NCBI RefSeq assembly: GCF_044324785.1
Contig: NZ_CP172127.1
Direction: 5' to 3' (one strand)
DNA length: 64,000 bases
Origin: Escherichia coli
GTDB lineage: Bacteria > Pseudomonadota > Gammaproteobacteria > Enterobacterales > Enterobacteriaceae
Each line of letters begins with the position of its first letter. The stretch's first letter is position 1. Made by a program: the position numbers and the translations under genes. Below are positions 1 to 19,306 of the stretch, piece after piece. The notes beneath the pieces are model-generated. The model did no database searches, was not told the DNA's origin, and saw only the letters and a program-made list of their open reading frames with translations.

Positions 1-168
1 CCAATTGATGAGCAAAAGACAATAACGAATTACTTGAGTGCAGCAACGATAAACATTGATTTACTGATTCAAGAGACTGATAAATCGATTGATCTTCTAA
101 AAGAACACCGCACATCGCTGATCAACGCGGCTGTCACAGGAAAAATAGACGTCAGGGAGGCGGTGTAA
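1..168 (+). CDS. hsdS: Type I R-M specificity subunit HsdS, C-terminal fragment (5' end outside window)
   Basis: Frame open from position 1 to TAA at 166-168; translation ends ...EHRTSLINAAVTGKIDVREAV, the conserved C-terminal helix of HsdS; stop overlaps the hsdR ATG (TAATG). Confidence 0.7.
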   Translation, partial: PIDEQKTITNYLSAATINIDLLIQETDKSIDLLKEHRTSLINAAVTGKIDVREAV

Positions 169-3100
169 TGGCTGCACATCATGAAGTGCATTTTGAACAA
201 TATATTACCGAGCAGTTGGTGAACAATGGCTGGAAAGAAGGCCATTCCTGCCACTATGACCAGCAACGCGCCCTTTACCCGCAAGATGTCATGGATTGGG
301 TAAAGGCCACCCAGCCAGATGCCTGGCACAAACTGAATAAACTGCATGGTGTGAATGCCGAGCAGGTGCTGTTGGAGCGTTTGGAAAAAGCCCTCTCTTC
401 CCACAAAGCTGGCAGTAAAACAGGTGGCACCATTAATGTGCTGCGTAAAGGCTTTACCATTGCAGGTTGCGGCACGATTGCCATGGGCCAACGCAAACCC
501 GAAGATGCGCGCAATGAAGAGCGTATAGCCCGTTATGAGCACAACATTTTGCGCGTGGTGCGCCAACTGAAATATTGCCCGACTCGCGAGTGGGAAATTG
601 ACTTGGTGTTCTTTATCAACGGTCTACCCGTTGCCACCGCCGAGCTAAAAACCGATTTTACCCAGTCGCTAGAATCGGCGATTGCGCAGTACAAAGAGGA
701 TCGTCTGCCCGTTGACCCAAAAACCAAGCGTAAAGAGCCGCTGTTAACCTTTAAACGCGGTGCAGTGGTACATTTTGCCATGTCTGATACAGAAATCGCC
801 ATGGCGACCAAACTGGCGGGAGAAAATACCTATTTTCTGCCCTTCAATAAAGGCCATGATGGTTCTACCTCTGATTTGCCCGTACACATCAACTTGCCGG
901 GTGAAGATGGAGAGTATCCGGTCAGCTATTTTTGGCAAGAAATTGCCCAAAAAGATAATTGGCTACGCATTTTCTACAGCTTTGTGTATGTCGAAACCAA
1001 AGAGGTTGCCGATAGCAATGGCAAGGTTGAGCGTAAGGAAACACAGATTTTTCCGCGTTATCATCAGTTAGCCGCAGTCAACAAGATGATTGATGATGCC
1101 CGCCAGAACGGCGCAGGCATGCAGTATCTTTGTGAGCACAGCGCCGGTTCGGGAAAAACCTCTACCATAGCCTGGACGGCCCATGATTTGATTCGTTTAC
1201 GCAGCACCGATGGTAAAGCGGTCTTTAAATCAGTGATCATTGTGACCGACCGCACCGTGCTGGATTCGCAGTTGCAAGATGCGGTGCAACAGCTGGATCA
1301 TCAATATGGGGTGATTAAGGTGATTGATCGCGAAAAGAGCAGCGAGTCGAAATCAAAACAGCTGACTGAAGCGCTATTGACTGGCACGCCGATCATTGTA
1401 GTGACGATTCAAACCTTCCCATATGCGTTAGAAGCGATTCTGACCAATCAATCTTTGGCACAAAGTAACTTTGCGGTGATCATCGATGAAGCACACACCT
1501 CGCAAACAGGCTCTACAGCCAAAGGGTTACGCGCAGCGCTTACTCTAAACCTTAGCCCTCAAGAGTTGGAGCAAATGAGCATTGAGGACATTCTTACTAA
1601 GGTGCAAGAAGCGCGCGCCATGCCCAAGAACGTTTCGCACTTTGCTTTTACGGCAACACCCAAGCACAGCACCAAGATGTTGTTTGGCCGCCCGAAAGAC
1701 CCTAACCAACCAGTGTCAGATGACAATCTTCCTGAATCGTTCCACCTCTACACCCAACGTCAGGCCATTGATGAGGGTTTTATTCTTGATGTGCTGGAGA
1801 ATTACACCCACTACGATACAGCCTACAAAATTGGTGAGAACAATCTGGATGAGAAGCGCGTAGACAGCAAACAAGCTCGCCGCGCGTTGGCGCGCTGGAT
1901 GTCACTGCACCCAACCACGGTCAGCCAAAAAGTCGAATTTATTATTAAGCACTTCAAGGCCAATATCGCTCACCTACTGGAAGGTGAAGCCAAAGCCATG
2001 GTGGTCACATCGGGCAGGCCACAGGCGGTGAAATACAAGCTTGCTTTTGATAAATACATTAAAAAGCATGGTATTGAAGGTATCCAAGCCTTGGTTGCCT
2101 TCTCGGGCAAAGTCCCCGGCAAAGATTTGGGTGATGAAGACAGCCAAGACCCGCTAGAAATTGATTTCGATAAAGAGTACACCGAGTACAACTTAAACCC
2201 AGACACGCACGGGGCTGACCTGCGCCATGAGTTTGAGAAAACCGAATATCGCGTCATGTTAGTCGCCAACAAGTTCCAAACGGGCTTTAATCAACCAAAA
2301 CTGGTTGCCATGTATTTGGATAAGAAAATATCCGATGTAGAAGCGGTGCAAACGCTGTCTCGCCTAAACCGCACCTATCCAGGCAAAGACACAACCTTCG
2401 TGATTGATTTTGTTAACGATCCACAAACCATTCTCAATGCGTTCAAAAAGTACGACAAAGGCGCGCAGCTTAATGAAGTGCAAGATGTGAACGTCATCTA
2501 TGACATCAAAGATATTTTGGATGAACAGAACATATACAACCATCAAGATTTAGAGTTGTTTAAGCAAGCGCGTGGTAAATCGATTCTCGGCCAATCACCT
2601 GACAAAAAGTCACACGCGCACAAGAAACTGCTAGCTGCCACACAACGCCCTACCGATGTGTTCAACGTTAAGCTCAAAGAGCTGGTTGATGCTGCAAACC
2701 ATTGGGATCAGCAATACAACAAAGCGCACCTTGCGGGTGATGAAAAAGCGGCGAACTACGCAGAATCTCAGCGCAGTGATTTCACCAAGCAGCGCGAAGC
2801 ACTAATGCGTTTTAAGTCAGATTTAGCTCGATTTGTGAAGCACTATAGCTATATGGCGCAATTGATTGAGTTTGGTGATCCTGAACTGGAAAACTTTGCC
2901 GCGTTTGCTCATTTGCTATCACGTCGATTGAAAGGGGTAACACCAGAAAACATCGATCTCAGTGCACTGGTACTAGAAAAATTCAAAATCAAATACGACA
3001 AAGAGCCGCTTCCAGAAGCGTTTAATCAGGTACTTGAACCTATCCGCCCCAACTATAACGACCCTGCGGATCGTGAACAGGCATTTCTTGCCGATATCAT

Positions 3101-3404
3101 TCGCCGCCTAAACGAACTGTTTGGCGATGTCGGCGACGAACCCGGTCGCCGAAACTTTGCCAACGGTACTATTACGCGTGTCACCCAAAATCCAATTGTG
3201 GTTGAGCAGATAGAAAAGCACGACAAGTCGATTGCCCTCAAAGGCGACTTGCCGCAAGCGGTGAAGCAAGCCGTTGTGCAGGCTCTGCTGAAAGAAGGTG
3301 ATATAGCCCGAACGCTACTCAAAGACCCACAAGTTATGGCAAGTTATGTTGAGTTGATTTTTGACATGATGAAGCAAGGTGCAGAACAGGCGGCGGTGAA
3401 ATAA
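168..3404 (+). CDS. hsdR: Type I restriction enzyme R subunit HsdR (1078 aa)
   Basis: Long ORF with SF2 helicase motifs (EHSAGSGKTSTIAW Walker A, IIDEAH DEAH box) and N-terminal nuclease region typical of HsdR; immediately follows hsdS. Confidence 0.9.
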   Translation: MAAHHEVHFEQYITEQLVNNGWKEGHSCHYDQQRALYPQDVMDWVKATQPDAWHKLNKLHGVNAEQVLLERLEKALSSHKAGSKTGGTINVLRKGFTIAGCGTIAMGQRKPEDARNEERIARYEHNILRVVRQLKYCPTREWEIDLVFFINGLPVATAELKTDFTQSLESAIAQYKEDRLPVDPKTKRKEPLLTFKRGAVVHFAMSDTEIAMATKLAGENTYFLPFNKGHDGSTSDLPVHINLPGEDGEYPVSYFWQEIAQKDNWLRIFYSFVYVETKEVADSNGKVERKETQIFPRYHQLAAVNKMIDDARQNGAGMQYLCEHSAGSGKTSTIAWTAHDLIRLRSTDGKAVFKSVIIVTDRTVLDSQLQDAVQQLDHQYGVIKVIDREKSSESKSKQLTEALLTGTPIIVVTIQTFPYALEAILTNQSLAQSNFAVIIDEAHTSQTGSTAKGLRAALTLNLSPQELEQMSIEDILTKVQEARAMPKNVSHFAFTATPKHSTKMLFGRPKDPNQPVSDDNLPESFHLYTQRQAIDEGFILDVLENYTHYDTAYKIGENNLDEKRVDSKQARRALARWMSLHPTTVSQKVEFIIKHFKANIAHLLEGEAKAMVVTSGRPQAVKYKLAFDKYIKKHGIEGIQALVAFSGKVPGKDLGDEDSQDPLEIDFDKEYTEYNLNPDTHGADLRHEFEKTEYRVMLVANKFQTGFNQPKLVAMYLDKKISDVEAVQTLSRLNRTYPGKDTTFVIDFVNDPQTILNAFKKYDKGAQLNEVQDVNVIYDIKDILDEQNIYNHQDLELFKQARGKSILGQSPDKKSHAHKKLLAATQRPTDVFNVKLKELVDAANHWDQQYNKAHLAGDEKAANYAESQRSDFTKQREALMRFKSDLARFVKHYSYMAQLIEFGDPELENFAAFAHLLSRRLKGVTPENIDLSALVLEKFKIKYDKEPLPEAFNQVLEPIRPNYNDPADREQAFLADIIRRLNELFGDVGDEPGRRNFANGTITRVTQNPIVVEQIEKHDKSIALKGDLPQAVKQAVVQALLKEGDIARTLLKDPQVMASYVELIFDMMKQGAEQAAVK

Positions 3405-3958
3405 TGAATACTGCGTTTCGGGTTTTACTTACGTTCAATGCAACATCACTACTAGTGATTATCTTTGCGGTACAAAAAGGGTACTCACTCGGATATTTCT
3501 TTGGTGGTTTCGCTTGCTTCGATTGGATAGCAGCACTTCCGAACGCAGTATCATATTTACTCTATTTTCTTATCCCTGTTTTATCGACTGGATTGAGTAT
3601 TTGGCTGAGTAAGTATTTGGGTAAAGACGATTTTAAGGCGGGTGAAGTAGCGAGTATTGAGCATGCCAATAACAGCTTCCTACCAAGTTATTTGGGTTAC
3701 TTTTTCGTGGCGTTGAGCATTGGTAACTGGGAGACATTGTGGTTTGTTTATGGCGTTTTGTTTGTTTTTACTCTCTTATCGCAAGCACTCTACTTTAACC
3801 CATTGTTTTTACTGTTTGGTTATGAGTTTTATAACATTACAACCAAAAACGGAACGGCCATTTTCCTTATTAGCCGAGAGCGCTACAAGAAGCCAGATGA
3901 CATCGAAATATCATTGGCTTATCGAATCAATAATTACACATTTATCGAGCGAGGATAA
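3404..3958 (+). CDS. Multi-pass membrane protein (184 aa), first gene of candidate two-gene defence module (KwaA-like architecture, unverified)
   Basis: ATG overlaps the hsdR stop; 4-5 hydrophobic helices (LLVIIFAVQ, FACFDWIAALPNAVSYLLYFLIPVLSTGLSIWL, YFFVALSIGNWETLWFVYGVLFVFTLL, LFLLFGYEF); visibly AT-richer than hsdR. Confidence 0.6.
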   Translation: MNTAFRVLLTFNATSLLVIIFAVQKGYSLGYFFGGFACFDWIAALPNAVSYLLYFLIPVLSTGLSIWLSKYLGKDDFKAGEVASIEHANNSFLPSYLGYFFVALSIGNWETLWFVYGVLFVFTLLSQALYFNPLFLLFGYEFYNITTKNGTAIFLISRERYKKPDDIEISLAYRINNYTFIERG

Positions 3959-4800
3959 TGATGGACCATGTACTGGCACATATAAAAACTAGAGCAAAAA
4001 AACGCATTTTCAAATTGGTTTCTGATCAATCTCTTTTTGATACCGTCACAATCGACTTAAATGCCTGTATTCCATACAATCCAGACCATAACCTTGACGA
4101 AGACTCATGGTTTAAAATTGAAGACTTTAGTCAAAAAGAGTTTTGTATTGAACTGCTAAAAAAAGACTATGATTCAAAAGACTACGATGACTTAACCAAA
4201 GATAACTTCGCCAAGATCGCCTACTTATTTGCAATTCAAGGTAATGATTTTTACTTTCAAAAAATCACTCCAAGCCTATTCGTAAAACGCAAAACGCTTG
4301 TTTTTGGTGAAGCCGCAGAAATTGAGAAGAGCCAAACACGTTTAGTAATAAACGCCTTACCTGATGCAGTGTACTTCAAAGTGGCCGATACCTTGATATT
4401 CAAAAATCTGGCAACGATCTCGAGCATTTTTAAAGGTATCGATGAGTTGTACAAGGAAGCAACAAAAGAAGAAGTTGAGCAGTTTTTAGATGCACAGTTT
4501 ATAGAGTTGGGTAATGACTACAACGTAGATAGCGTCTCAAAACCTAATAGAAAACGTATTGGCCTTGCTATGGCAACACTTGATGCGATGTCTGCTGACG
4601 ATAAAGCTAACATGCTTGATTATATCGACGGTTACTGCGGTGAACAGAAGCTGAAATTCGATAAAGAAAATCAGAAGTTTGAAATATCTAATGACGATGA
4701 GTTGAAGTTACTGCTTTATGGCATTGAACAACGCTTCTATACGACCCCGTTTGGCAAAGAAAAAAGGCTCGCTAACTCTGTAACCGCTATGGATAAATAA
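3958..4800 (+). CDS. Soluble protein of unknown function (280 aa), second gene of candidate defence module (KwaB/DUF4868-like by architecture only)
   Basis: Start overlaps the upstream stop (TAATGATG); acidic, K/D/E-rich, no hydrophobic segments, no motif I recognise; AT-rich. Confidence 0.55.
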   Translation: MMDHVLAHIKTRAKKRIFKLVSDQSLFDTVTIDLNACIPYNPDHNLDEDSWFKIEDFSQKEFCIELLKKDYDSKDYDDLTKDNFAKIAYLFAIQGNDFYFQKITPSLFVKRKTLVFGEAAEIEKSQTRLVINALPDAVYFKVADTLIFKNLATISSIFKGIDELYKEATKEEVEQFLDAQFIELGNDYNVDSVSKPNRKRIGLAMATLDAMSADDKANMLDYIDGYCGEQKLKFDKENQKFEISNDDELKLLLYGIEQRFYTTPFGKEKRLANSVTAMDK

Positions 4801-4820
4801 TAGCCCATTATCAGTAACAT

Positions 4821-5870
4821 ATGAAGGTTGATTCAATGGCCGATAACATCCCACAAGCTCCTCAAGGTGAGTTTGTTCTTTTCACCAGTGCTGATGGTCA
4901 AACCCGCGTTGAGTGTCGTTTTGAGTCTGACACCTTGTGGCTTTCTCAGGCTGCAATGGCAGAGCTTTATCAAGTTAGCTCTCAAGCAATCACCCAACAC
5001 GTAAAAGCTGTCTATTCTGAAGAAGAGCTTGAGCAAATTTCAACTTGTAAGGATTACTTACAAGTTCAACTGGAAGGTGGCAGAGAAGTAAAGCGAAGCA
5101 TTCGTCACTACAGTCTTCCGGTTATTCTTGCAGTAGGATACCGAGTTCGCTCAACACGTGGCACCCAGTTCCGCCAATGGGCAACCAGAATGTTGCAAGA
5201 ATACCTAATCAAAGGATTCGTCATGGATGACGAGCGCCTGAAAAATCCGCCCATTGGCCATTCTGCTGTGCCAGATTACTTTGATGAAATGCTGGAACGC
5301 ATTCGTGATATCCGAGCTAGTGAGCGTCGCGTTTATCTGCGAGTCAAAGAAATCTTTACCATGGCTGCTGATTACGAGCCATCTAACCAAGAGACCAACC
5401 GCTTCTTCCAAACCATTCAGAATAAGCTGCATTATGCTTGTACGCATATGACGGCTGCTGAGCTTATCGCCAGCCGTGTGGATGCCAGTAAGCCGGATAT
5501 GGGCTTAACCAGCTATAAAGGCGATGAAGTGCGCAAGACAGACGTTACTGTTGCCAAGAACTATTTGCGTGAAGACGAAATCAAAGAGCTTAATCGCATC
5601 GTCAATATGTGGCTCGACTTTGCTGAAGACCAAGCACTGCGTCGCAAGCAGGTATTTTTACAGGACTGGGCCGATAAGCTTGACCAGTTCTTGAGTTTTA
5701 ACGATAGAGATGTATTAAACGGTGCAGGAAAAATCTCCAAGAAAGACGCTGATGACAAAGCGAAATTGGAGTTTGACCGCTTTGCCCAGCAGCGCCGTCG
5801 TTTAAAAGAAGCCGAAGGCGCACGGGCCAATATCGCAGCCCTCAAGGCCATACTAAAAAAAGATAAATAG
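4821..5870 (+). CDS. RhuM-family protein (alternative start at ATG 4836)
   Basis: N-terminal segment LFTSADGQTRVECRFESDTLWLSQAAMAELYQVSSQAITQHVKAVY matches the RhuM family N-terminal region as I recall it; 20 bp downstream of the preceding gene, same strand. Confidence 0.55.
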   Translation: MKVDSMADNIPQAPQGEFVLFTSADGQTRVECRFESDTLWLSQAAMAELYQVSSQAITQHVKAVYSEEELEQISTCKDYLQVQLEGGREVKRSIRHYSLPVILAVGYRVRSTRGTQFRQWATRMLQEYLIKGFVMDDERLKNPPIGHSAVPDYFDEMLERIRDIRASERRVYLRVKEIFTMAADYEPSNQETNRFFQTIQNKLHYACTHMTAAELIASRVDASKPDMGLTSYKGDEVRKTDVTVAKNYLREDEIKELNRIVNMWLDFAEDQALRRKQVFLQDWADKLDQFLSFNDRDVLNGAGKISKKDADDKAKLEFDRFAQQRRRLKEAEGARANIAALKAILKKDK

Positions 5871-5927
5871 CCGATATAGTACAGCCCTGATCTCTAATGA
5901 GTTGAGGGCTGTGTTGTAAGATCATAA

Positions 5928-6604
5928 CTATAAAGGATTATCCATCTTAAAATCGTCGATATCGCCTGTCATTTTGAATAGATTGGTGTCATTCCAACGG
6001 CACAGTTGTCTAACCCGCATTAGATTTGAGTTGGCTCTGCGGATTATTGAGAAAGCATCTTCAACAGCAGTAATCACCGATTTTTCCCAATCTTGTGCTC
6101 GGGTAAAGGTGCTTTGTGAATAGCGATAATTGCCCTCACGGGGGAGGTAATGGCTGATCACCTGGTATTTGTCAGAATTCTTTTTAGGTTTAAACTCGTT
6201 GTAAACCCAGAAAATTTCGAGTTTTTTGTTTCTTTGCCTTACACGACAACCAAAATGACCTGGGTAGCCTTCAGAGTTTTTACCTCTATGTGCAACGTTG
6301 TTCAGCCAGAACAAGTCTGCAATTTTTTGTGCTATGTAGAAGTAGCGGAGCTGTTCTATTTCGGTTGATTTATGGGTGTAGTGTAGATATTGCTCTGATA
6401 TGGTTAAGGAAAAAGCATTGCGTCGTCTTGATTAACATTTGTGCTATTGACAATAAAGGTTTCCCAAATATTAATTTGTGTTTCTAGTCCTTTAAATGAT
6501 TTTGAGAAGGCTTCTATGTACTCAGATTGCGGTTGATTTCCCCCATTTAGTGCTGCACCAAATGTAGCTATCTGTTGTTCTAAAAATGAATGATTTTTGG
6601 TCAT
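5928..6604 (-). pseudogene. Hypothetical AT-rich gene, apparently frameshifted (66-aa frame 6404-6604 continuing in +1 frame to 5928)
   Basis: Good SD (AGAGGA) before ATG at 6604; second frame opens just before the first frame's stop and runs ~155 codons with no ATG (ORF track used TTG at 6314); abutted by the IS3-family TIR. Confidence 0.35.
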
Positions 6605-6630: not shown

Positions 6631-6664
6631 TGCGTATTTTCATGAAAGGAGATCACTCAATAAC
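6631..6664. repeat. IS3-family left terminal inverted repeat (34 bp)
   Basis: Exact reverse-complement match to 8296-8329; begins TG. Confidence 0.8.
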
Positions 6665-6712
6665 CCCCCTGTGTCAGCATAGTTGTCGCCTCAATTTTTT
6701 AAGGAGATAACA

Positions 6713-7225
6713 ATGCCAGGACAACCAATACCAAATGAGCTCAAAGAAAAAGGACTGATATGGCTTTTGCCACCATACTGTTGGTCACACCGTCAGATAG
6801 CCCGGAAGCTGAAGATCAGTGCCTCAGTTGTATCAAAATGGAGATGTGAGTTAGTGGAGCAAGGACTTTTACCTGAAAATGAAAAGATTACCTCCGTTGA
6901 TGTTGAAGACTGGACACCGGAGCGTCGATTCTCAGTTGTTCTTGAGACGGCTACGCTGTCAGAAATGGAACTTGCTGATTATTGCCGACGCATGGGATTG
7001 TTTGTTGAACAGGTTAAAGAATGGCGGGCTATCTCAATTCAGGCGCATGAAAAGAAATTGACGGAAAATATCCGAACAGACAGGGCATTGCGTGACGCAA
7101 AAAATAAGTTACGAGAACTGGAGAAAGAGCTTAAGCGCAAAGATAAAGCTCTGGCGGAAGCAGCTGCCCTGCTTATATTAAGGGAAAAGTTCAATGCCCT
7201 CTGGGACAACAGCGAGGAAGACTGA
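6713..7225 (+). CDS. IS3-family transposase OrfA (HTH plus leucine-zipper region)
   Basis: SD AAGGAG 6 nt before ATG 6713; C-terminal heptad-like LRELEKELKRKDKALAEAAALLILREKF. Confidence 0.6.
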   Translation: MPGQPIPNELKEKGLIWLLPPYCWSHRQIARKLKISASVVSKWRCELVEQGLLPENEKITSVDVEDWTPERRFSVVLETATLSEMELADYCRRMGLFVEQVKEWRAISIQAHEKKLTENIRTDRALRDAKNKLRELEKELKRKDKALAEAAALLILREKFNALWDNSEED

Positions 7226-8252
7226 CCCCTCTCCTGGAGCGGCATAAAATTATTTCTCTTGTCCGTGAGGCCGTCGCCAACGGCGCCCGGAAAGGTCAGG
7301 CTTGTAGGTGTATCGGTATTTCTATTCGGACACTTCAGCGCTGGACTAATGGCAACATCATCACCACGGACCGAAGATCCGATACTGTAAACAGCTCTCC
7401 CCGAAATAAGCTGTCAGAAGCGGAAAGATTGCGAATACTGGAGTTGTGCAACTCTCCAGAGTTTGCATCCTTGCCTCCAAATGTGATCGTACCAACTCTG
7501 GCAGACAGAGGTATTTATATTGCTTCTGAATCAAGTTTTTATCGTGTACTGAAATCAGCCAAGCAGTTGAAGAAACGATCCCGTGAATGCCAGTATAAAC
7601 TGGCCTGATGTACTCAGGGCCGTTGCACCGAATCAAGTCTGGAGTTGGGACATCAGCTATTTGCCGTCCTGGGTCAGAGGCCAGCATTTTTACCTCTATA
7701 TGATCGTCGATATTTACAGTCGCAAAATTATTGCTGCTGAGGTATTTGCCAGCGAATCTGGAAAACATGCAGCAGAACTACTCCAGCGTGCAGTATGGAA
7801 TGAAAAATGTTCATCCAACAATCTGGTACTCCATTCTGATAACGGTGGTCCCATGCGCAGTGACACGTTGTTGGCGAAAATGTATGCGCTTGGTGTGCTA
7901 AGTTCTTATTCCCGGCCAAGAGTCAGTAATGATAATCCTTACTCAGAATCTTTGTTCCGGACTCTCAAATATTGTCCCTGGTGGCCTGAGAACGGTTTTC
8001 GCACTATTGATGATGCCAGAGTATGGGTAAACCAGTTTTGTAAACTGGTACAACTTTGAACATAAGCACAGCGGGATCAAATACGTCACGCCAGCCGAGC
8101 GTCATCAAGGTAATGATATGAAAATACTGGCGGCCAGAAAAGCAGTATACCAGCTGGCACGCGAACAGCATCCTGAACGTTGGGGAAAGCATCTACGTAA
8201 CTGGGACTACATATCAGAAGTCTACCTGAATCCAGAAAAAGAGGCTGCATAA
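7222..8252 (+). pseudogene. IS3-family transposase OrfB (DDE integrase core), interrupted by extra frameshifts/stops
   Basis: Integrase-core sequence split over three frames (...CQYKLA stop; VWSWDISYLP...SDNGGPMRSDT...KYCPWWP; HSGIKYVTPAERH... ending 8252). Confidence 0.55.
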
Positions 8253-8295
8253 CGTAATTTTATTACAAAAGGCGACAACTACCTTGAAAAACGCC

Positions 8296-8329
8296 GTTAT
8301 TGAGTGATCTCCTTTCATGAAAATACGCA
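8296..8329. repeat. IS3-family right terminal inverted repeat (34 bp)
   Basis: Exact reverse complement of 6631-6664. Confidence 0.8.
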
Positions 8330-8866
8330 CCATGACCATACCCTCTGCAACCTGACCATCGTAGTCACGCAGCGTCAGTGAACCTCCGAACAACTGTTTT
8401 ACCCGGTACATCGCTGTTTCCGCTATCGAACGACGGTTATAATCTGTTGTCCATTTACACCGGGCATTACTTCCGGTCAGCCGCTGATTAGCCACTGCAC
8501 GGTTACGGTCTTCGTATTCACCGGGCTAGTAACCCGCACCTTTTCGGGAAGGGGTAAGCGCGCTGATTTTCTTACGCCTCAGTTCATCGTGACAGAGTCG
8601 GGGGTCGTAAGCCCCGTCTACCGCTGCAGCCATGATTTTTCTGTGAGTCTGTTGGAGAAGCCCCGGGAAGGCTTCTGAGTCCGTGACGTTGTTCAGCGAC
8701 AGGTCTGCACAGACAATTTCATGTGTGTTGCCATCAACAGACAGATGCGACGCCCCTCTTTGCCGTGCTTTTTGGCTTTCCTTTCGCCTTCCCCAAAGAC
8801 TTTTAGCCCGTTGGAATCAATCACGAGGTGTATGATTTCACCCCGGGTGGGGATTTATGTATAAGA
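8330..8866 (-). pseudogene. IS903-like (IS5-family) transposase remnant, C-terminal half only
   Basis: Minus-strand translation gives ...HLVIDSNGLKVFGEGE...THEIVCADLSLNNVTDSEAFPGLLQQTHRKI...RSIAETAMYRVKQLFGGSLTLRDYDGQVAEGM, recognisable as IS903-type transposase; in-frame stops present; cut by the IS3 TIR and lacking the N-terminal half and IS ends. Confidence 0.6.
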
Positions 8867-9032
8867 AACAGCGTATTCGTGAGGGGTGAGCCATGAATAA
8901 AATCCCTTTTGAAGTATTAATCCACTCTGAAAATGCATTAATCTGCGCAAAGGAAATGGACGCGTTATTAATTAAGTTAATTGATATTCCGGAAAGTGGC
9001 GATAAAACATATTCGATGACGGACAGGCGACA

Positions 9033-9305
9033 ATGTGGTTATCTGTGCTGGCGTTTGGCAGACAGGCCGAAGCACTGGCCAGACACCAGAAAGGCGAACT
9101 GGTAAGCGTGGCAGGTAACATGCAGGTCAGCCAGTGGACAGGGCAGAACGGGAAAACGCGGCAGGGACGGCAGGTTATCGCAGACAGCGTAATCAATACT
9201 CAAACGGTGCGGCCAGGAGGAAGCAGACGCGAAACCACAGGTACACAGGGTAATCAGCCACCAACGGGAGGCGACGCCACTTACGGAGATGATATACCCT
9301 TATGA
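9033..9305 (+). pseudogene. ssb: Single-stranded DNA-binding protein (plasmid/ICE-type SSB) remnant lacking its N-terminal part
   Basis: ...VLAFGRQAEALARHQKGELVSVAGNMQVSQWT...GDATYGDDIPL resembles the SSB OB-fold C-terminal half and acidic DDIPF-type tail; upstream frame is closed. Confidence 0.55.
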
Positions 9306-9322
9306 ATTAAGCGGGGCGCAAC

Positions 9323-9643
9323 ATGAACAACAGCACACTGAAGAGCCGGACAATAAGCGACGCGACAGCGGAAGAACTCGAGAGCAGGGGACTGTGGCGA
9401 CGTGCTGCCAGAAGGTGGCAGGATGTGATGATTACTCTTGAGAAAGACAGTCACAGACAGCTTGCAGTAATGAGAGCAAGGGAATGTATCAGGAAGGCAA
9501 AACGCCCGATACCTGAAAGCCGTATTGATATTCATACAGTCAGAAAGGCCGCAGACAGGACAATACAAAAAATGGGGCTACCGTCGCTTACTGATGAAAT
9601 ATGGCGCGATTACCCTGATAGCGTTAACGATGACGGTTATTAA
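9323..9643 (+). CDS. Hypothetical protein (106 aa)
   Basis: ORF directly after the SSB remnant; no recognisable motif. Confidence 0.25.
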   Translation: MNNSTLKSRTISDATAEELESRGLWRRAARRWQDVMITLEKDSHRQLAVMRARECIRKAKRPIPESRIDIHTVRKAADRTIQKMGLPSLTDEIWRDYPDSVNDDGY

Positions 9644-9926
9644 CTGGCGGGGGAAACACGATACCAGCGGGCGTGACTCGGGAGAATATATACCGCTGGT
9701 GGAACATTACCGGCCCTGATGGCTGGTGGCGTGCGTTACGACCTGAAAGACCATCCATGCGGGAAGGTGACACAGGAGCACCTGGCGAACGCGGGGAAGC
9801 GACTGGATGAGATTAAGAAAAAACAGCAGGAGCGCAGAAAAAGTAACCGTCTCATTAAAACGTCTTTCGCCTCCCTTTCCTGTTTCCTATGCTAATGTCC
9901 ATTTTCGCAGTAAAAGGACATTTACG

Positions 9927-10440
9927 ATGAATGCACGAAAGGCGGTACTGGCAGATAATCCGGAATTGATCCTGCGTTTGCTACAACTGAAATTTGACGA
10001 GACACTGTCGTACCCGCGCATTTCTGCACAGACCGGTGTCAGCAAAACCGCTATTTTTTCTCTGGTGAGGCGATTTCATCAGGTATTCACTGACGGGCAT
10101 CTTTCTGGTGAATATTCCTGCGTGCAACTGACCGGGCTCTTTTCCCGGGGCGATAATATTCAGCCCCGACAGTGACTCAGCCTGTAAAAACAGAGAAAAC
10201 CCGTCGGAACCGATTTTCACCAGAGTAAAAATGGAGACTTGTTCAGCAAACTCTTTTACCCGGAGCCTGTGTGGCCCAGATTGCACGAGAGTCTGGCATC
10301 AATGATAATGTTATTTTCAAATGGCTCAGACTCTGGCAAAACGAAGGGCGTGTTTCGCGGCGTCTTCCGGTAACAACCACTTCTGACGCAGGCGTTGAAT
10401 TATTACCTATGGAGATAACGCCGGATGAGCAGAAAGATCC
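9927..10440 (+). pseudogene. IS-type transposase N-terminal HTH remnant (two HTH segments in different frames; family uncertain, possibly IS630-like)
   Basis: MNARKAVLADNPELILRLLQLKFDETLSYPRISAQTGVSKTAIFSLVRRF (SD AAAGGA upstream) and, in another frame, MAQIARESGINDNVIFKWLRLWQNEGRVSRR; truncated where the ugpB remnant begins. Confidence 0.3.
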
Positions 10441-10980
10441 GATGATTCCCCTACCGCCAGCTTTTCGCCTGCGCCGGTATACGTTTCTTTATCTTTGCCC
10501 TGCATCACCCACAGGCTGGCTCCGCCGATAATGGCGTTTTGTGGTGCATCTTTCGCGTCAGCGTCGTAAGGCATCATGCCTACGCCGTAGTTGAATTTGG
10601 CGTACTCGCGAATGTTGGCAAGAGAACCGGAAGAGGCGGTGGTCATCGCGCAATCACCTCTATAGAACTTCTCGGTGGATTCATCCTTACGCCCGACGTA
10701 GATGAAGTCGCCCTTCTTGTTCATCTCCTCGAGCATGACGATGTGTTTCACCTGCTCCGGCTTGTTGAACTCCAGCACCGCGTCCGTGGCGTCAAAACCG
10801 TTGTTTTTGCTGGCAAACGGCAGACCGTTCCTGGCGCTAAAGTTTTCCAGTTGTATCCACCTCTTTGCCCATTTCCCCTTCCATAGAGTTCCAAAACGGA
10901 ATGGTCGTCACTGCCTGTGCATTGCCCATTAACGCCAGTCCGAGCACCAGTGATGAAGCTGTATAATGTAACGGTTTCAT
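10407..10980 (-). pseudogene. ugpB: sn-glycerol-3-phosphate-binding protein UgpB remnant (internal deletion, frameshift, truncated C-terminus)
   Basis: Minus-strand ATG at 10980 gives [42 protein letters not shown] (UgpB signal peptide/N-terminus), then after a frameshift jumps to ...[42 protein letters not shown]...[18 protein letters not shown] and terminates. Confidence 0.7.
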
Positions 10981-11735
10981 CGTTTATCTCTCTTGCTTGT
11001 TGTACCTGATGTGCAAATTCACTCGTTTTATGCTCGCGGGATTACATATCATGCCCGAATTGCAGAAAAATAACTTTTTATTACATGTGTAAGACAGTAA
11101 AACCTCAGAAAGATGACAGTGTGGTGCCGGCGCGGGTGAGGAAAAATGGAAGATGGGGAATGTATAAGCGGGAAAATAGGAGGGCCTGTGGATTGTAGAT
11201 AATGTGCTCATCGTTTTCATGCCGGATGAGACATAAACACTTTTATCTGAGCATTTCTATGTATTCGGACAGTTGTTCTTGGCATCCAATGGTGCAGGTT
11301 CTGTAGTGTGTGGTGGTAGCAATAGCCTCAGCTTCATTACAATATTTATTATCTCAAACATTCAAATGTCCTTGGCCCACTTTGATAGTCACTTTGTCGT
11401 GGTTATTATGTCTTTCCTTTTCCTAAAGCCCCATTATCTGTGCTGCAGCTTTCCCTCCATCAACGAACCAACAACCAGCAATGCCTGTCCCCCATAACAG
11501 CCCGGAAAATGGCACATTCTCAGATGATTTATCCCGCGAGCTATCCCGCCTACAGCTAATCGACCTGTTTAATACATCTTGACAGTCTGCTGGCAAGGTT
11601 ACCCTTCCCAATATTGTCCGTTTTTAACATATCTAATACGAGCCCCCATCAAATATGCTTCGTGTTCACTGTAAGTGACTAAAAGTGCTGTCTGCCCTGC
11701 CTCATGCAAAATATCACGAACTTCACGGCTCAGTC

Positions 11736-12237
11736 CTACCCTTGTTTTTTATCCAAGCTGGAAAATGGTTCATCTAGCAACAGGATATCTGGATTTGGAA
11801 CCAGTGACCTTGCAAGGGCAATACGTTGCTGCTGACCTCCTGAAAGTTCATGAGGATAGCTGTCTGAATAGTGGAATAAATCCACCATTTTCAACAGTTC
11901 TGTAACTCTGGTTCGCTGTACATCTCTCGGCAGTCTTCTCAGACCAAAGCCACGTTTTGTGAAACTGTAAGGTGGGGAAAGAGCGCATATTCCTGAAAGA
12001 CTATACCGACATGACATTTCTCCGGCGGAAAATGCATATCTGCGCTGGCCACACAATGCTGTGATACAAAAATTTCCCCTTGTTCAGGCGCTCAAAACCA
12101 GCTACAGCACGTAGTACTGTTGTTTTTCCACAACCTGATGTACCAAGCAGACATGCCAGTTCACCTTTACAGACTGACATACCCCCCGCCCCGCAATACA
12201 GGATATGGGCTATTGGGATAAACAACATGGACATCAT
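11736..12237 (-). pseudogene. ABC transporter ATP-binding protein remnant (frameshifted)
   Basis: Walker A LLGTSGCGKTT and signature/Walker [16 protein letters not shown]...[12 protein letters not shown] lie in two different frames. Confidence 0.55.
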
Positions 12238-12267
12238 TAATACATAAAGCTGTTTCTTCAGACATAA

Positions 12268-12868
12268 TCAATCCTCTGATTTCAGTCTTTCAGCTGGAAC
12301 AAACAAAATAACCGGAAATGTCCCTGCAAGAACAATCATTAAAGCAGAGATGGCCCCTTCTTCAAAAGTTCCACGGGCTGCTTCAGCATAAAGAAGTGTT
12401 ACTGGCAGTTCTTTCATCGCATCAGTGAAAACCAGCAGGGCACTGCTCACCAGAGCAACACAGGAAAGTGAACCCGAACAAAAGTTCCTGTACCATTTTC
12501 TCCCAGCAGACGTGAGGCTTGTTCCAGTGACTCTGGTATACGTCCCAGCCGGACATCAAGTGCGCCGATGGCTATTGCCTGAAATCGCATCGTACAGCAA
12601 ATCACCAACAGGACACCGACAGACATTAAAGGTAACCCCCTGTAATCCAGTAGTTCCGCCAGCCAGCGGTCATTTAGGGAGTCAGAAAACCAATCGCCAG
12701 AATCGTGCCTGGAAAGGCATAACCCAGCGACGCCACTCTCATCACACCGCGCCTGAACAGTGGCATAGCGTTGAGGAATTCCGGGCATTCCAGACTACGA
12801 GCAGACTGACAAAAATTACGACAAAGCGTTGAAGGAAGCCAGCGCGCGGACTGACAGGACTTTACCAT
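12268..12868 (-). pseudogene. ABC transporter permease remnant (split over three frames)
   Basis: Hydrophobic permease-like fragments incl. ...AMKELPVTLLY... and ...ALDVRLGRIPESLEQASRLLG... in successive frames. Confidence 0.45.
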
Positions 12869-12918
12869 AAAAACACAGGCTAACCGCGCCTGCGTTTTTA
12901 ATGACGGATGAAACAGAA

Positions 12919-14451
12919 TCAGGTGCCGATTATGCCGCCGTCGGCTTTTACGATAACGACAGTTGAGGAGCGCGGACGACCAGCCTTATCGCCGTCAGGC
13001 CAGCTTGATACTGCCGTCGGATGCTGCGGATCGCTAAGCCCTTCGCTTGGCTCGCCAGGGTGCTGGATGTTAATAAACAGCGTCCGGTTATCCGGAGTGA
13101 ACGCGATGCCGGTGATTTCGCAGCCGCGCGGGCCGGTCAGGAAGCGGCGGAACTCATTGGTACCGGGGATCGTCGCCACCATCTGGTTGTTGCCCATGCC
13201 TTTGTAATCTTTAATATTTATGGTTGATGACGACACGTCGGTCTGGATCCATAGCACGCCGCGGTGATCAAAGCTCAGGCCATCGGCGCTGCCGAATTCC
13301 GCACCCTTCATGCTGCCTTTGGTTTCCAGTTTGTCTGTATCGGTGCGACCGCCCATCACAAGAATATCCCAGGCAAACTGCAGCGCGGTCGGGTCACCGT
13401 TATGCTCCAACCAGTGAATGATGTGGCCGTAAACGTTTTTGGCGCGCGGGTTGGCCGCATCCACTGGCGCTTTTCCTTCCTTACCGCGATCGCTGTTGTT
13501 GGTGAGCGTGCAGTAAACGCTGCCGGCGTGATATGGATCGACCGCAATCCACTCCGGGCGGTCCATTTTAGTGGCCCCCACGGCGTCTGCCGCCAGACGG
13601 GTTTTAATCAACAGGTCGCCCTGGTTTTCAAACCCTTTACTGGCGTCGAGCCCATTTTGTCCGAACACCAGCGGTAGCCACTCGCCTTTGCCGTCGTCGT
13701 TAAATTTCGCCACGTACAGAGTGCCTTTTTCCAGCAGGTGCATGTTGGCTTTGCGATCCTGCGGGTTGAATTTTCCTTCCGAGACAAATTTATATATGTA
13801 TTCGAATTTCTGGTCATCGCCCATATAGACCACAACGCGGTTATCCGGGGCAATTGTCACCGCTGCGCCTTCGTGTTTGATGCGACCAAGCGCGGTGTGC
13901 TTGCGCGGCACTGAATGCGGATCGTATGGATCGATTTCCACCACCCAGCCGAAGCGGTTCGGCTCGTTCGGCGTGGCGTCGACGCTGAACCTTTTATCCA
14001 CTTCGTTCCAGCGGTAAGAGTCGTCGCTCCCGCTGATACCGTAACGTTTTTCCAGCGGGTTCATCTCTGCTTTTTTTACGAAAATATCGGACCAGTTCTC
14101 TTCACACGTCAGATAGGTGCCCCACGGCGTAAATCCGTTGGCACAGTTCTGCATGGTGCCGAGAATGATTTCGCCTTTCGGATCGTCAACTGTTTGCATC
14201 AGTGGGTTATGCAGCGCCGGACCGGTGATTTTCATCGGCGTGTTAACGGTGATGCGGCGTGCGAACGATGACGGGCGCACCACTTCCCAGCCCAGGGGCA
14301 CTTTTTTTACTTCAATGACCGACACGCCCATCGCGTTCTGGCCTTTAAGAGCTTTATCGGCGCTCCAGTTGGCATCGCCATCTTTAAACAGTAGACCGTT
14401 ATCGATGTATTCATGGTTTATGGCAAGCAGGCCGTGATCGGAGCTGTTCCC
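12919..14451 (-). pseudogene. phoX: PhoX-family (DUF839-like) secreted phosphatase gene, 3' part, separated from its 5' part by the prophage
   Basis: Reading frame continues exactly from the fragment at 52793-53245 across the target-site duplication (...SLPQGGN | SSDHGLLAINHEY...); the first 16 codons of ORF 12919-14499 are phage-end derived. Confidence 0.65.
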
Positions 14452-14500
14452 TGATGCGCCGCGCGATAAATGCACTCTATCTTGTGCGATAAATGGCATC
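14452..14500. repeat. Prophage left terminus with two putative transposase-binding motifs
   Basis: GATAAATG at 14465-14472 and 14488-14495; mirrored at identical offsets at the right end. Confidence 0.6.
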
Positions 14501-14529
14501 CACGCGGCGTTTCATTATTTGAAAAAGAA

Positions 14530-15102
14530 TTACATTTCAGGTTGCGTTATGACAGTCCCAACAGGGTGGTAGCGGTAGATCGTTGACAGTCCAATATCAT
14601 AGATAATTGCCAGCCGCTTTCTGTCATACCCTTTCTGGAGCAATCTTGCGATCTGCTCATGCTGCTCCTTCGTCAGTTTCGGGCGACGTCCTCCAACTCT
14701 TCCTTGTGCTCGCGCAGCAGCCAGTCCTGCCAGCGTGCGCTCAACTATCAGTTCACGCTCCATTTCTGCCAGTGCACCCATCATATGAAAAAAGAACCTT
14801 CCCATCGGAGTGCTGGTATCGATTGAATCCGTCAGACTGCGAAAATTGACACCTTTTGCGCGTAGCTCTTCTGTGAGAGCAATGAGGTGTTTCATTCTTC
14901 TACCCAACCGATCCAGCTTCCAGACCACCAATGTATCCCCTCTTTTAAGGCACTTTAAAGCGCGTTTCAGGCCTGGTCGTTCCGACTTGGTTCCGCTCAT
15001 TTTGTCCTCAAAAATCTGTTCACATCCTGCGCACATTAATGCATTGCGTTGCAAATCTGTGTTTTGGTCATTTGTTGACACACGTATGTAGCCAATCAGC
15101 AT
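14530..15102 (-). CDS. pin: Site-specific DNA invertase, Hin/Gin/Pin serine recombinase family
   Basis: MLIGYIRVSTNDQNTDLQRNAL...GDTLVVWKLDRLGR...MGALAEMERELIVERT is the invertase catalytic domain plus C-terminal HTH; adjacent to tail-fibre cassettes. Confidence 0.9.
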   Translation of the reverse strand: MLIGYIRVSTNDQNTDLQRNALMCAGCEQIFEDKMSGTKSERPGLKRALKCLKRGDTLVVWKLDRLGRRMKHLIALTEELRAKGVNFRSLTDSIDTSTPMGRFFFHMMGALAEMERELIVERTLAGLAAARAQGRVGGRRPKLTKEQHEQIARLLQKGYDRKRLAIIYDIGLSTIYRYHPVGTVITQPEM

Positions 15103-15147
15103 TAAAAATACTCCCTTTTGAGTGGTTAAAGTACTGAGATAATGTGG

Positions 15148-15173
15148 GGAGGATTTGAGAGATAAACGTTGGT
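15148..15173. other. Putative invertase crossover site A (gix/pix-like), core AAACG-TT-GGTTT
   Basis: Core AAACGTTGGTTT at 15155-15166 at the start of the conserved ~200-bp fibre box; identical inverted core at 16779-16790. Confidence 0.45.
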
Positions 15174-15686
15174 TTAGGAGAAGGCTCGGCGCTACCCGTT
15201 GGTGTGCCTGTTCCGTGGCCCACCGCCACACCGCCAGCAGGCTGGTTAAAGTGCGACGGGCGCGCCTTTACAAAAGAACAATATCCTGTTCTGGCCAGAG
15301 TCTACCCGACCCTCCGTCTTCCCGATTTACGCGGTGAGTTTATCCGTGGATGGGACGACGGGCGCAAAGTTGATACAGGACGTAAGTTGCTGTCCGCACA
15401 AGGGGCAACGCTGTTAAGAACAGCAATGCTGGATTATTATAACCAGGACACTACGGGAACCTCGGGGATAGTCGGCATGGGATTCAACAATGAAGATTCC
15501 ATTACAGACCTTCGTGAGGGCAGCTTTAAAATGCCGGACGGGACAACATTCAGCGATCCTGTCGTGGCAATGTCAGACAATGGTATGCAGGCTACTATTC
15601 TGACCTCTATCAGAAGCGGGTATGCGAAGGGTATCACTGTCAGACCCCGTAGCATTGCACTTAATTACATTGTGAGGGCAGTTTAA
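15150..15686 (+). CDS. Tail-fibre C-terminal cassette 3 (start-less alternative variable domain)
   Basis: Frame opens after TGA at 15147-15149 with no ATG; encodes the conserved box GEGSALPVGVPVPWPTATPPAGWL...RGEFIRGWDDGRK then a unique C-terminus ending NYIVRAV. Confidence 0.7.
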
Positions 15687-16300
15687 TGAGTAACACTGCA
15701 GTTCTGGATGAAAACGGTATCGCCACTGTAGCGGGCGAGATCACTGTATATCACTATGACGAGGAAACCCGGGAATACACCTCATCCTCTGTGGAGTATC
15801 TCGCCCTTGGGGTGGGTACTCCGGCACATTCGTGCGCCGATGCACCGCCGGAGGCAATTTCGGGTTACGTGGTTTGCCGGACTGCCACGCTGAACGGGTG
15901 GGAGCATGTGCCTGATCACCGCGGCGAGACGGTATACAGCACGGAGAACGGTAACCCCGTTCTGATTACCCAACCGGGTGATTACCCGGCGGACACCACC
16001 ACAAAACAGCCGGCCACGCCATGGGATACCTGGAACGGTGAGGCGTGGGTAACCGATACTGAACGGCAGCGAGCCGCAGAACTGGAGGTTGCCAGACAGC
16101 AACGCCAGCAACGGGTGAAACAGGCGATGGCGTCCGTCGATCTTATCAACCTCAAACTGCGTGCTGGTCGCAGTCTGACACCAGAAGAAACGGCAAAACT
16201 GAACGCCGTGCTGGATTATATCGACGAGCTGAACGCACTGGATATCAGCACGGCACCTGAAATCAGCTGGCCGGAAGCGCCACTGGCACTTGCCAGCTGA
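15686..16300 (+). CDS. Tail fibre assembly protein (Tfa/U-like)
   Basis: ATG overlaps cassette-3 stop (TAATG); 204 aa, in the position and orientation of a Tfa chaperone for cassette 3. Confidence 0.65.
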   Translation: MSNTAVLDENGIATVAGEITVYHYDEETREYTSSSVEYLALGVGTPAHSCADAPPEAISGYVVCRTATLNGWEHVPDHRGETVYSTENGNPVLITQPGDYPADTTTKQPATPWDTWNGEAWVTDTERQRAAELEVARQQRQQRVKQAMASVDLINLKLRAGRSLTPEETAKLNAVLDYIDELNALDISTAPEISWPEAPLALAS

Positions 16301-16306
16301 ACGGTA

Positions 16307-16780
16307 TCACGCCGCCCTCACGATATAGTTAAACGCGATATTGCGGGGGCGGGTTATGTTAAAGAATGCTCCGTTTAATTCGGCTTTTGCGCGACTGTTT
16401 GTTCCACCCAGAATTGCGTACCACAAATAATCGCTACGGTAATTCCCCGCAAACACCTTATCGCCGCCATAGTCAATATTATTTCCGTTACTCATGTACG
16501 AGATATCCAGCGAAGAATCGTTATCGTCATGACCGCCGACCAGTGTACCTTTCTGCCATGAAAGCAACTTACGCCCCTCGTCAATCTTGCGCCCGTCGTC
16601 CCATCCACGGATAAACTCACCGCGTAAATCGGGAAGACGGAGGGTCGGGTAGACTCTGGCCAGAACAGGATATTGTTCTTTGGTGAACGTAGCTCCGTTG
16701 CACTGTAACCAGCCTGCTGGCGGTGTGGCGGTGGGCCACGGAACAGGCACACCAACAGGCAATGCAGAGCCTTCCCCCAA
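16307..16780 (-). CDS. Tail-fibre C-terminal cassette 2 (unfused alternative variable domain, TTG-initiated frame)
   Basis: Begins with the same conserved box as cassettes 1 and 3 but has a different distal sequence; lies directly after the main fibre stop in +1 frame. Confidence 0.55.
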   Translation of the reverse strand: MGEGSALPVGVPVPWPTATPPAGWLQCNGATFTKEQYPVLARVYPTLRLPDLRGEFIRGWDDGRKIDEGRKLLSWQKGTLVGGHDDNDSSLDISYMSNGNNIDYGGDKVFAGNYRSDYLWYAILGGTNSRAKAELNGAFFNITRPRNIAFNYIVRAA

Positions 16781-16798
16781 ACCAACGTTTTTATGCGG
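16773..16798. other. Putative invertase crossover site B (inverted relative to site A)
   Basis: + strand AAACCAACGTTT at 16779-16790 is the reverse complement of the site A core. Confidence 0.45.
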
Positions 16799-18719: not shown

Positions 18720-19306
18720 CTGCTCCCGTGGTTATAACTGCCATCATGGATGGCGGTATTGTTATAGCGAATGGCCACAGACTGATACTCCAGGCTGGCC
18801 AGATGGCAGCGGGCCGGTGCAAATGCAGCGAGCGTCTGACGCAGCATCGCGGCCTGATCGTTAGTAATGGGCTGTTTCAGAATAACGCGATAAACCGCCC
18901 AGGCGGCTGCATCTCCATGAACAAACAGTCCGTTATAGCTGCGATTGCCGTCGTAACTGAGACGACCTGTGCCTTCAATCAGATCCACTTCACCAAAGCC
19001 AAAACGGCGGATAACTTCCCGGATTGACCACGGCGTCCCTTTATACCGGTGTAGTTCGATGGCTGCTTTTATAAGCATGCGGCGAACATCGTCCGATTCC
19101 GCCAGCTCCCAGCCATCGCCAGACAGTGAGAACTGCTCGCCCAGCCATGGCAGCGCAGAACTGTCGACGATATCGACGAGAAAGACCATCAGTACGCTCA
19201 GGTCGATGTTATCCAGCCGCCCTGCCAGTCTTCCCAGCGTCCTGAGACTGATATCACCCTCAAGCGGTGGCGGGAGTTGTAATGGCTCAGTCATCAGACA
19301 CTCCAC
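18716..19306 (-). CDS. Baseplate/tail protein, P2 gpI-like
   Basis: Position between baseplate J and tail fibre; size and context. Confidence 0.65.
   Translation of the reverse strand: MECLMTEPLQLPPPLEGDISLRTLGRLAGRLDNIDLSVLMVFLVDIVDSSALPWLGEQFSLSGDGWELAESDDVRRMLIKAAIELHRYKGTPWSIREVIRRFGFGEVDLIEGTGRLSYDGNRSYNGLFVHGDAAAWAVYRVILKQPITNDQAAMLRQTLAAFAPARCHLASLEYQSVAIRYNNTAIHDGSYNHGSS

Follow-up and report, generated by a model that had tools for sequence, protein, structure and literature searches.

The window analysed here is a stretch of 64,000 nucleotides from an Escherichia coli chromosome (100% match to NZ_CP054388.1), and at positions 6631–8329 it carries an insertion sequence (IS) unit with perfect terminal inverted repeats, a decayed transposase, and no target duplication. 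The question raised by this locus is how these three properties came together in one element. The original prediction described an IS3-family element that sits at a recombination or deletion junction between unrelated DNA segments. The reading that we consider probable is that the unit is a nested chimera, where a dead ~1.63-kb IS3-family IS (6665–8296) lies between two inverted 34-bp repeats from the left end of a different element, ISEc12, and where targeted integration followed by recombination between copies left the present structure as a scar.

Layout of the unit, its genes, and its flanks

The unit and its immediate surroundings contain the following features.

6404–6604, minus strand: flanking hypothetical gene WP_012311738.1, 66 aa; an ORF beginning MKIR is a 13-codon upstream extension of it
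6631–6664, plus strand: left arm, tip outward: repeat L1, the outermost 34 bp at the left end of ISEc12 (IS21 family), with no mismatch to bases 1–34 of the IRL that precedes istA in ISEc12 (L007, L144, L194)
6651–6654: GATC core of the left arm
6665–8296, plus strand: the IS3-family IS proper, 1632 bp, with base 8296 common to the IS and the right arm; 97% identity to intact copies, and the same ends and length in other species without the arms
6665–6690, plus strand: own left inverted repeat of the IS3-type element, CCCCCTGTGTCAGCATAGTTGTCGCC, 26 bp, kept in >120 loci of diverse bacteria, among which the sequence upstream of the C-run is unrelated
8271–8296, minus strand: own right inverted repeat of the IS3-type element, CGGCGTTTTTCAAGGTAGTTGTCGCC, 26 bp
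8296–8329, minus strand: right arm, where the L1 repeat of the ISEc12 left end occurs again in inverted form; in intact relatives this position is taken by the ISEc12 right-end repeat
8330–8851, minus strand: internal fragment of an IS903-like (IS5 family) element, cut by the tip of the right arm

Comparison of the window sequence with itself confirms that 6631–6664 and 8296–8329 form a perfect inverted repeat (34/34 nt, 100% complementary). The 34-mer occurs twice in the whole window, both times at these positions, and 100 shuffles give an expectation of none. The flanks read ...GGTTGATAC followed directly by TGCG of the left arm, and CGCA of the right arm followed directly by CCATGACC..., and there is no direct repeat of 3, 4, or 5 bp between them. 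The predicted absence of a 3–4-bp duplication is thus correct as an observation, but the size to be expected outside these arms is 5 bp, as for ISEc12, and that duplication is absent too, with GATAC outside the left arm and CCATG outside the right one. The IS903-like remnant proposed for the right flank is indeed an internal fragment of such an element, 84–87% identical to IS903B-type copies, and the GC content of the left flank is 39–49%. Annotation from L001 places the unit in an island, with a type I restriction-modification system (hsdM/S/R), RhuM, and MobI(A/C) on the left (1–6400), and with ssb, perC, a ProQ/FinO gene, and a cluster of intact and broken IS66-family copies on the right (8850–20000).

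Between the arms there is no istA or istB, only an orfA and orfB of IS3 type.

6713–7225, plus strand: orfA, intact, 170 aa, with an N-terminal HTH like the N-terminus of ISEc12 IstA and then a second, IS3-type HTH
7147–7608, plus strand: orfB segment 1, in the −1 frame relative to orfA, cut short by an extra T at 7601
7571–8059, plus strand: orfB segment 2 (DDE/rve core), ended by an extra A at 8034
8031–8252, plus strand: orfB segment 3 (C-terminal part)

When the unit is aligned with its intact 1695-bp relatives (97.1% identity), orfB is seen to have two extra single-base insertions, the T at 7601 and the A at 8034, and because of them orfB is broken into three open frames. The predicted decay of the transposase therefore comes down to these two +1 frameshifts, which are additional to the normal −1 programmed frameshift annotated by PGAP in the intact copies L004 and L006; there, frameshifting into orfB, in the −1 frame and overlapping the end of orfA, is itself predicted from that annotation. 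Family models support the assignment to the IS3 family, and their scores come from an intact relative to which the frameshifted window copy is 97% identical. OrfB reaches 187.6 bits against NF033516 (NCBIfam, cut-off 160), 63.3 bits against Pfam PF00665 (rve), and 45.3 bits against PF13683 (rve_3). The second, IS3-type HTH of OrfA, at about residues 67–140, is conserved across the group, like the IS ends. The window copy is an inactive fossil with no evident function.

An outward ATG in each repeat (ATGAAAATACGCA) was also part of the original prediction, which drew attention to the hybrid MKIR ORFs that result. The motif is present in both arms because both arms have the same sequence, and the ORFs are a trivial by-product of it, with no support for expression. 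On the left, the ATG adds 13 in-frame codons to the 66-aa gene at 6404–6604 without a Shine-Dalgarno sequence of its own, whereas the 66-aa gene has AGAGGA. On the right, it opens an ORF of 12 codons. No promoter-like site was found in either arm.

Two elements, two sets of ends

The owner of the arms can be identified from a complete ISEc12 (L194; 2584 bp, 5-bp duplication CCATC), which begins with an IRL of type A and has an IRR of type B, so that it ends in B'. The terminal segments of the intact 1695-bp relatives are of these same two types, TGCGTATTTTCATGAAAGGAGATCACTCAATAAC for A and TGCGTATTACCGTGAAGGAGATCGGTGAGTAAC for B, which differ at 8 positions and by one indel. The window arm is identical to bases 1–34 of the ISEc12 IRL, both arms of the window unit consist of these bases, and an IRR-type arm is absent from it. 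Type A is the first of several GATC-containing repeat units in the ISEc12 left end. In a tandem pair of ISEc12 copies (L007), the sequence reads istB...B'-AC-A...istA, with the right and left tips abutting across the 2-bp spacer AC (L007 334–337), the form known for IS21 as the reactive junction.

We conclude that the 34-bp repeats belong to the left end of ISEc12 and not to the IS3-type element, for which they had been taken as its own ends; its real ends are at 6665–6690 and 8271–8296. Since the repeats are two copies of the same foreign left-end sequence, their perfection is not a sign of youth. An annotator would wrongly enter the unit as an IS3 element bounded by inverted repeats of 34 bp, although these outer repeats are those of ISEc12 and the real ends are reached only 34 bp inward.

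The IS3-type element is a distinct element with its own 26-bp ends. When one genome per species was scanned for the 22-nt core of the left end, more than 120 loci were found, including loci in Pseudoalteromonas, Marinomonas, Shewanella, Vibrio, and Geobacter, and the core is also present in Planctomycetota, Myxococcota, and Aminicenantes MAGs. Outside E. coli the element is 1.62–1.66 kb long, the sequence beyond the C-run is unrelated between copies and is not palindromic, there are no ISEc12-like arms, and no IS21 genes were found next to these relatives. Two of the foreign copies have 4-bp duplications (L026, ATAG; L122, CGCT), and such a duplication is absent in four other complete foreign copies, in the chimeras where an IS lies between two arms, and in the window. 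Compared with the E. coli proteins, foreign OrfB is 46–60% identical and foreign OrfA 25–50%.

The 26-bp ends (6665–6690 and 8271–8296 in the window; L017–L136) are nearly letter-for-letter constant over distant phyla despite this protein divergence, which is unusually strong conservation for IS ends, and they are strictly conserved even in relatives at 75% identity. They read CCCCCTGTG... and ...AAAAACGCCG and lack the IS3-typical 5′-TG...CA-3′; a TG occurs at positions 6–7 of the left end, and at the left end only. Names given by PGAP or by the source annotation are "IS3 family transposase" or "hypothetical," with nothing closer. The intact 1695-bp relatives were rejected as the reference IS, because their arms are swapped in L006, replaced in L005 and L014, and absent in other species.

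The E. coli lineage and IS21-type repeats

We inspected 14 distinct copies from genomes, plasmids, and the window, where L014/L015 are one locus in two plasmids and were counted once. An IS21-type repeat unit lies against both ends of the IS in 13 of the 14, in several arrangements: A...B' (L002, L004); B...A' (L006, plus L012 and L013, which are relatives at 75% identity); X...Y' (L005, L145); X2...Y2' (L014/L015); X...A' (L143); and A...A' (the window, L001, L003). The 14th copy, L144, comes from plasmid pI66 and is a simple insertion, with the IS placed within an intact ISEc12 IRL at the boundary of L1 and L2, where the sequence reads ...GATCACTCAATAA, the IS, and ATAACTTCCATCGAG...istA with a 4-bp duplication, ATAA; it is the one clean single-site insertion recovered with both junctions.

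The 47 E. coli-type metagenome loci have 28 distinct outer flanks, and at 45 of the 47 the left end of the IS adjoins an IS21-type unit (second repeats L2 included). The exact register, in which the junction falls 9 nt past the GATC of the repeat, is found in 32 of the 47, compared with 0 of 117 loci in other species. The association holds over arm types A, B, X, Y, X2, and Y2 and over the second repeats L2/R2. At three loci, sequence at one IS end is not of IS21 type (L147 on the right, L182 and L185 on the left). In L185, one of the two left-end exceptions, the IS abuts ...CCCGGGGCGGTTCA, which resembles the tip of an IS629/IS1203-type end. IS cores are identical across arm orientations (L004 and L006) and near-identical across arm types (L002 and L005), and the relatives at 75% identity sit in the same arms, all of which points to movement of the IS in recent times. 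From these data we infer that the E. coli lineage of the IS probably integrates site-specifically at the inner edge of IS21-type repeat units.

Outside the arms, chimeras such as L004 and L006 have 5-bp duplications of ISEc12 type, among them GTACG and CCTGG, with 6–7-bp matches elsewhere. The 5-bp duplications could date back to the original insertion of ISEc12, or IstA/IstB could have generated them when the units were mobilised later. Because the arm/IS junctions vary by ±1 base within C and G runs, more than one reading of the boundaries and duplications is possible. One chromosomal site (duplication CCAGG) contains the IS in either orientation, or a 62-bp IS-less pair of arms, depending on the strain, and the 62-bp form is present in 534 genomes. 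The two orientations at this site (CCAGG/CCTGG) lie between the same two arms, in L006 2001–3695 and L191 on the one hand and in L179, L188, and L189 on the other, with junctions that differ by one G.

Further variants were seen. Units that keep two repeat units in one arm (L168, L173, L186) fit replacement of an IS21-type interior. In seven metagenome contigs (L149, L158, L159, L165, L167, L172, L178), a truncated IS copy lies against the L2 of an ISEc12-like left end that has a different tip (TGGCGAGCTTCATGG...), and the C-run of the IS is mutated to CCCTC.

A possible basis for targeting is found in OrfA. Its residues 1–52 (MPGQPIPSELKEKGLIWLLPPYCWSHRQIARKLKISASVVSKW...) align from Met1 with residues 1–51 of ISEc12 IstA (MPTVPISMRKLKEILRLKYGVGLSHRQIGRSLAISPSVVSRY...) at 42% identity and 31 bits (pairwise E 1e-5), a score reached by 0 of 20,000 shuffles. 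In a database-wide search with OrfA 1–61, only the element's own family was recovered and the similarity to IstA was not significant. The similarity is common to the 75%-identical E. coli relative and to one symbiont relative outside E. coli, L118, where no obvious IS21 context was seen; for more distant relatives, the scores against IstA do not rise above background. Pfam gives L122, the one distant relative tested there, a canonical HTH_Tnp_1 N-terminus; it does not place this model at the N-terminal end of the main E. coli OrfA, and for the 75% relative the N-terminal match to it is weak, below the cut-off. We regard the IstA-like N-terminus as a lead to a possible targeting mechanism and not as a result.

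Palindromic mini-elements made of IS21-type terminal repeats alone are common in E. coli, with lengths of 62, 65, 68, and 72 bp (L008 301–368; L009 301–362; L137/L138 151–215; L139 151–222). The A/B type occurs at one site in the 534 genomes noted above and the X/Y type in about 1600 genomes, and they may have arisen from IS21 elements by deletion or may be what the IS3-type element left behind when it was lost. The 65-bp X/Y mini-element is exactly the filled form minus the IS. The 62-bp A/B mini-element at the L006 site lacks 3–5 bp of arm B and for this reason is not the direct precursor of the filled form there. No IS-less mini-element was found at the L004 site, where uninterrupted cbtA and unrelated ISEc12 copies were found instead, and no parent IS21-type element was found for the X/Y arms; lone X or Y halves adjoin IS66 copies or defence genes. 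A model in which the IS simply inserted at the centre of an existing palindromic mini-element was rejected, except as a sub-variant, since the A/B junctions give no direct duplication in any parse; the X/Y case fits only parses of 0–3 bp because of the C and G runs.

The route that we propose for the intact chimeras would begin with site-specific integration of the IS at an IS21-type repeat with a 4-bp duplication, for which the ~50 IstA-like residues of OrfA are a possible basis. One copy would occupy the A-side site (duplication ATAA) and a second copy, in the same orientation, the B-side site (duplication TTAC), and the predicted tandem intermediate would read A-IS-ATAACGTTAC-IS-B'. Homologous recombination between the two same-orientation copies at both ends of one IS21-type element or mini-element would then delete the stretch between them, and the product would be an IS between two arms without a duplication around the IS. 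This route would work alike from a full ISEc12 or from a mini-element. An ATAA/TTAC double insertion followed by recombination gives exactly the observed junctions, ...CTCAATAA, the IS, and TTACTCACC....

In a wider form of this proposal, to which we give somewhat less than an even chance, an IS3 lineage acquired an IstA-like DNA-binding module, homes to the repeats of IS21 ends, occupies both ends, recombines, and replaces the interiors, which would yield the chimeras, the hybrid-arm scars including that of the window, and perhaps the 62–72-bp mini-elements. If the targeting is real, one IS family parasitises the ends of another, with a borrowed IstA-like HTH as a simple candidate basis, and this would cost IS21 elements their interiors, create chimeric non-autonomous units, and leave scars where recombination has joined unrelated DNA, both in islands and in virulence plasmids, for example the K88 and pO113-type plasmids. 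Literature searches by name, sequence, and concept found no description of an IS3-family lineage that targets IS21-type terminal repeats, or of such chimeras.

Origin of the window copy

The window copy differs from all other loci among the copies inspected in having two left-type arms and no duplication, and from this combination it is inferred to be a recombination product. In the proposed third step, recombination of the same type as above would have taken place between IS copies at the left ends of two different, inversely oriented ISEc12-type elements. Such an event, occurring once, would explain the perfect repeat, the missing duplication, and the joining of the hsdMSR-rhuM-mobI island segment to the IS903-like fragment, and a recombination or deletion junction, as originally predicted, is the most likely setting of the element. 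The X...A' copies L143 and L166 share their left flank with the X/Y copy L005, and they show that recombination between such ISs reshuffles arms and flanks. After the recombination, the window copy would have decayed through the two orfB frameshifts. Insertions and deletions beyond these, and a truncation, are seen in other strains.

In all 71 E. coli genomes that share the left junction, arm A follows the left flank, and the full unit lies beside the IS903-like fragment in 12 genomes. A copy with intact orfB and a proper duplication at this exact site would have spoken against the predicted junction, but all versions inspected among the 71 genomes are decayed or truncated and none has a duplication. 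Other strains have a 52-bp insertion in orfA or a truncation at about 7520, and another version has different indels, with a G deleted at 7054 and without the A insertion at 8034. The 52-bp insertion, at window position 6955 (L003, L016), is CTGTCTGTCACGAACGGTGCAATAGTGGATCACTTTTCATCCGTCGTTGACA. An empty A-A' palindrome as the target of the IS was rejected, as no such IS-less palindrome was found in 5426 E. coli genomes. Neither the two precursor copies nor the reciprocal product (B...B') was found. No mosaic breakpoint is visible in the core of the window copy, and a mosaic core was dropped as evidence of recombination.

The main rival to recombination is conversion of an arm, where an ordinary A-IS-B' chimera had its right arm converted to left-arm sequence, perhaps when mismatch repair acted on a snap-back hairpin formed by the two arms, and lost its duplication separately by an adjacent deletion. 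We consider this unlikely. Conversion agrees with the fact that all nine arm-type differences switched as one block that ends exactly at the arm/IS boundary, and truncated IS copies abound in the surrounding island, which makes extra deletions plausible. However, it needs two independent events where recombination needs one, the X...A' hybrid-arm copies exist and cannot arise by conversion, and there is no other A...A' or B...B' copy among about 60 loci. A further alternative addresses the association itself, in that a few chance landings of the IS in IS21-derived mini-elements may have produced units that IstA/IstB then spread in trans. The ISEc12-like duplications outside the arms and the many distinct outer flanks are in keeping with such hitch-hiking, and mobilisation by IstA/IstB in trans may still add to the spread. 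Yet the same register recurs in at least eight independent junction classes (A, B, X, Y, X2, Y2, two L2 kinds, and one full-ISEc12 insertion), and cores that are nearly the same occur across arm types and in either orientation, at one site even in both. We consider hitch-hiking as the source of the association even less likely than conversion.

The remaining two alternatives concern the nature of the unit. If the 1695-bp unit were one autonomous chimeric IS, with an IS3-type transposase that uses the IS21-type arms as its ends through the IstA-like N-terminus of OrfA, the window would be a two-left-end variant of it, and that N-terminus as well as the duplications outside the arms would find a ready explanation. 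This is very improbable, because the inner IS3-type ends are strictly kept even at 75% identity, near-identical cores exchange arms, an IS with an arm on one side only has its own 4-bp duplication (L144), and the window copy has no duplication. The account that started from an ordinary IS3-family element with a perfect 34-bp inverted repeat of its own does have in its favour that the arms begin with TG and end with CA, as IS3 ends usually do, but it is refuted by the identity of the 34-mer with the ISEc12 left end, by relatives in other species that lack the 34-mer, and by the two different arms of the intact E. coli copies.

The kinds of element and behaviour involved are already known: this applies to IS3 elements and ISEc12, to the nesting of ISs, and to homing, whether the IS homes to a repeat or to the end of another element. 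IS3-family elements transpose by copy-out/paste-in and produce OrfA and OrfAB by −1 frameshifting. The element studied here resembles them in its orfA/orfB in 0/−1 arrangement, its rve DDE core, its NF033516 score above the cut-off, the PGAP-annotated programmed frameshift of intact copies, and the 4-bp duplications of simple insertions. It departs from them in ends that read CCCCC...CGCCG in place of the family's TG...CA, in an OrfA with two HTH regions, and in the tie of its E. coli lineage to IS21-type repeats; its length of about 1.63 kb is long for the family. With ISEc12 and the IS21 family, the window unit shares the outermost left-end repeat as its 34-bp arms, and related chimeras share the 5-bp duplications outside the arms, but the window unit has no istA/istB, two left-type arms, and no duplication.

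Like MITEs and mobile insertion cassettes, the units have cognate IS21-type ends without IS21 genes, and 62–72-bp IS-less versions are common in E. coli; unlike them, the cargo is a complete foreign IS, and mobilisation in trans is putative, suggested by the many sites with outer 5-bp duplications. Among ISs that home to specific sequences, IS1397 and ISKpn1 (IS3 family) insert in REP palindromes, and IS4321 and IS5075 (IS1111 group) insert in the inverted repeats of the Tn21 family. As with these, the insertion position here is fixed within a short repeated sequence and either orientation is used, but the target is the transposase-binding repeat of IS21-family ends, and PGAP does not name the window element IS1397-like. 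The behaviour that the window copy exposes is a moderately interesting variant of targeted transposition.
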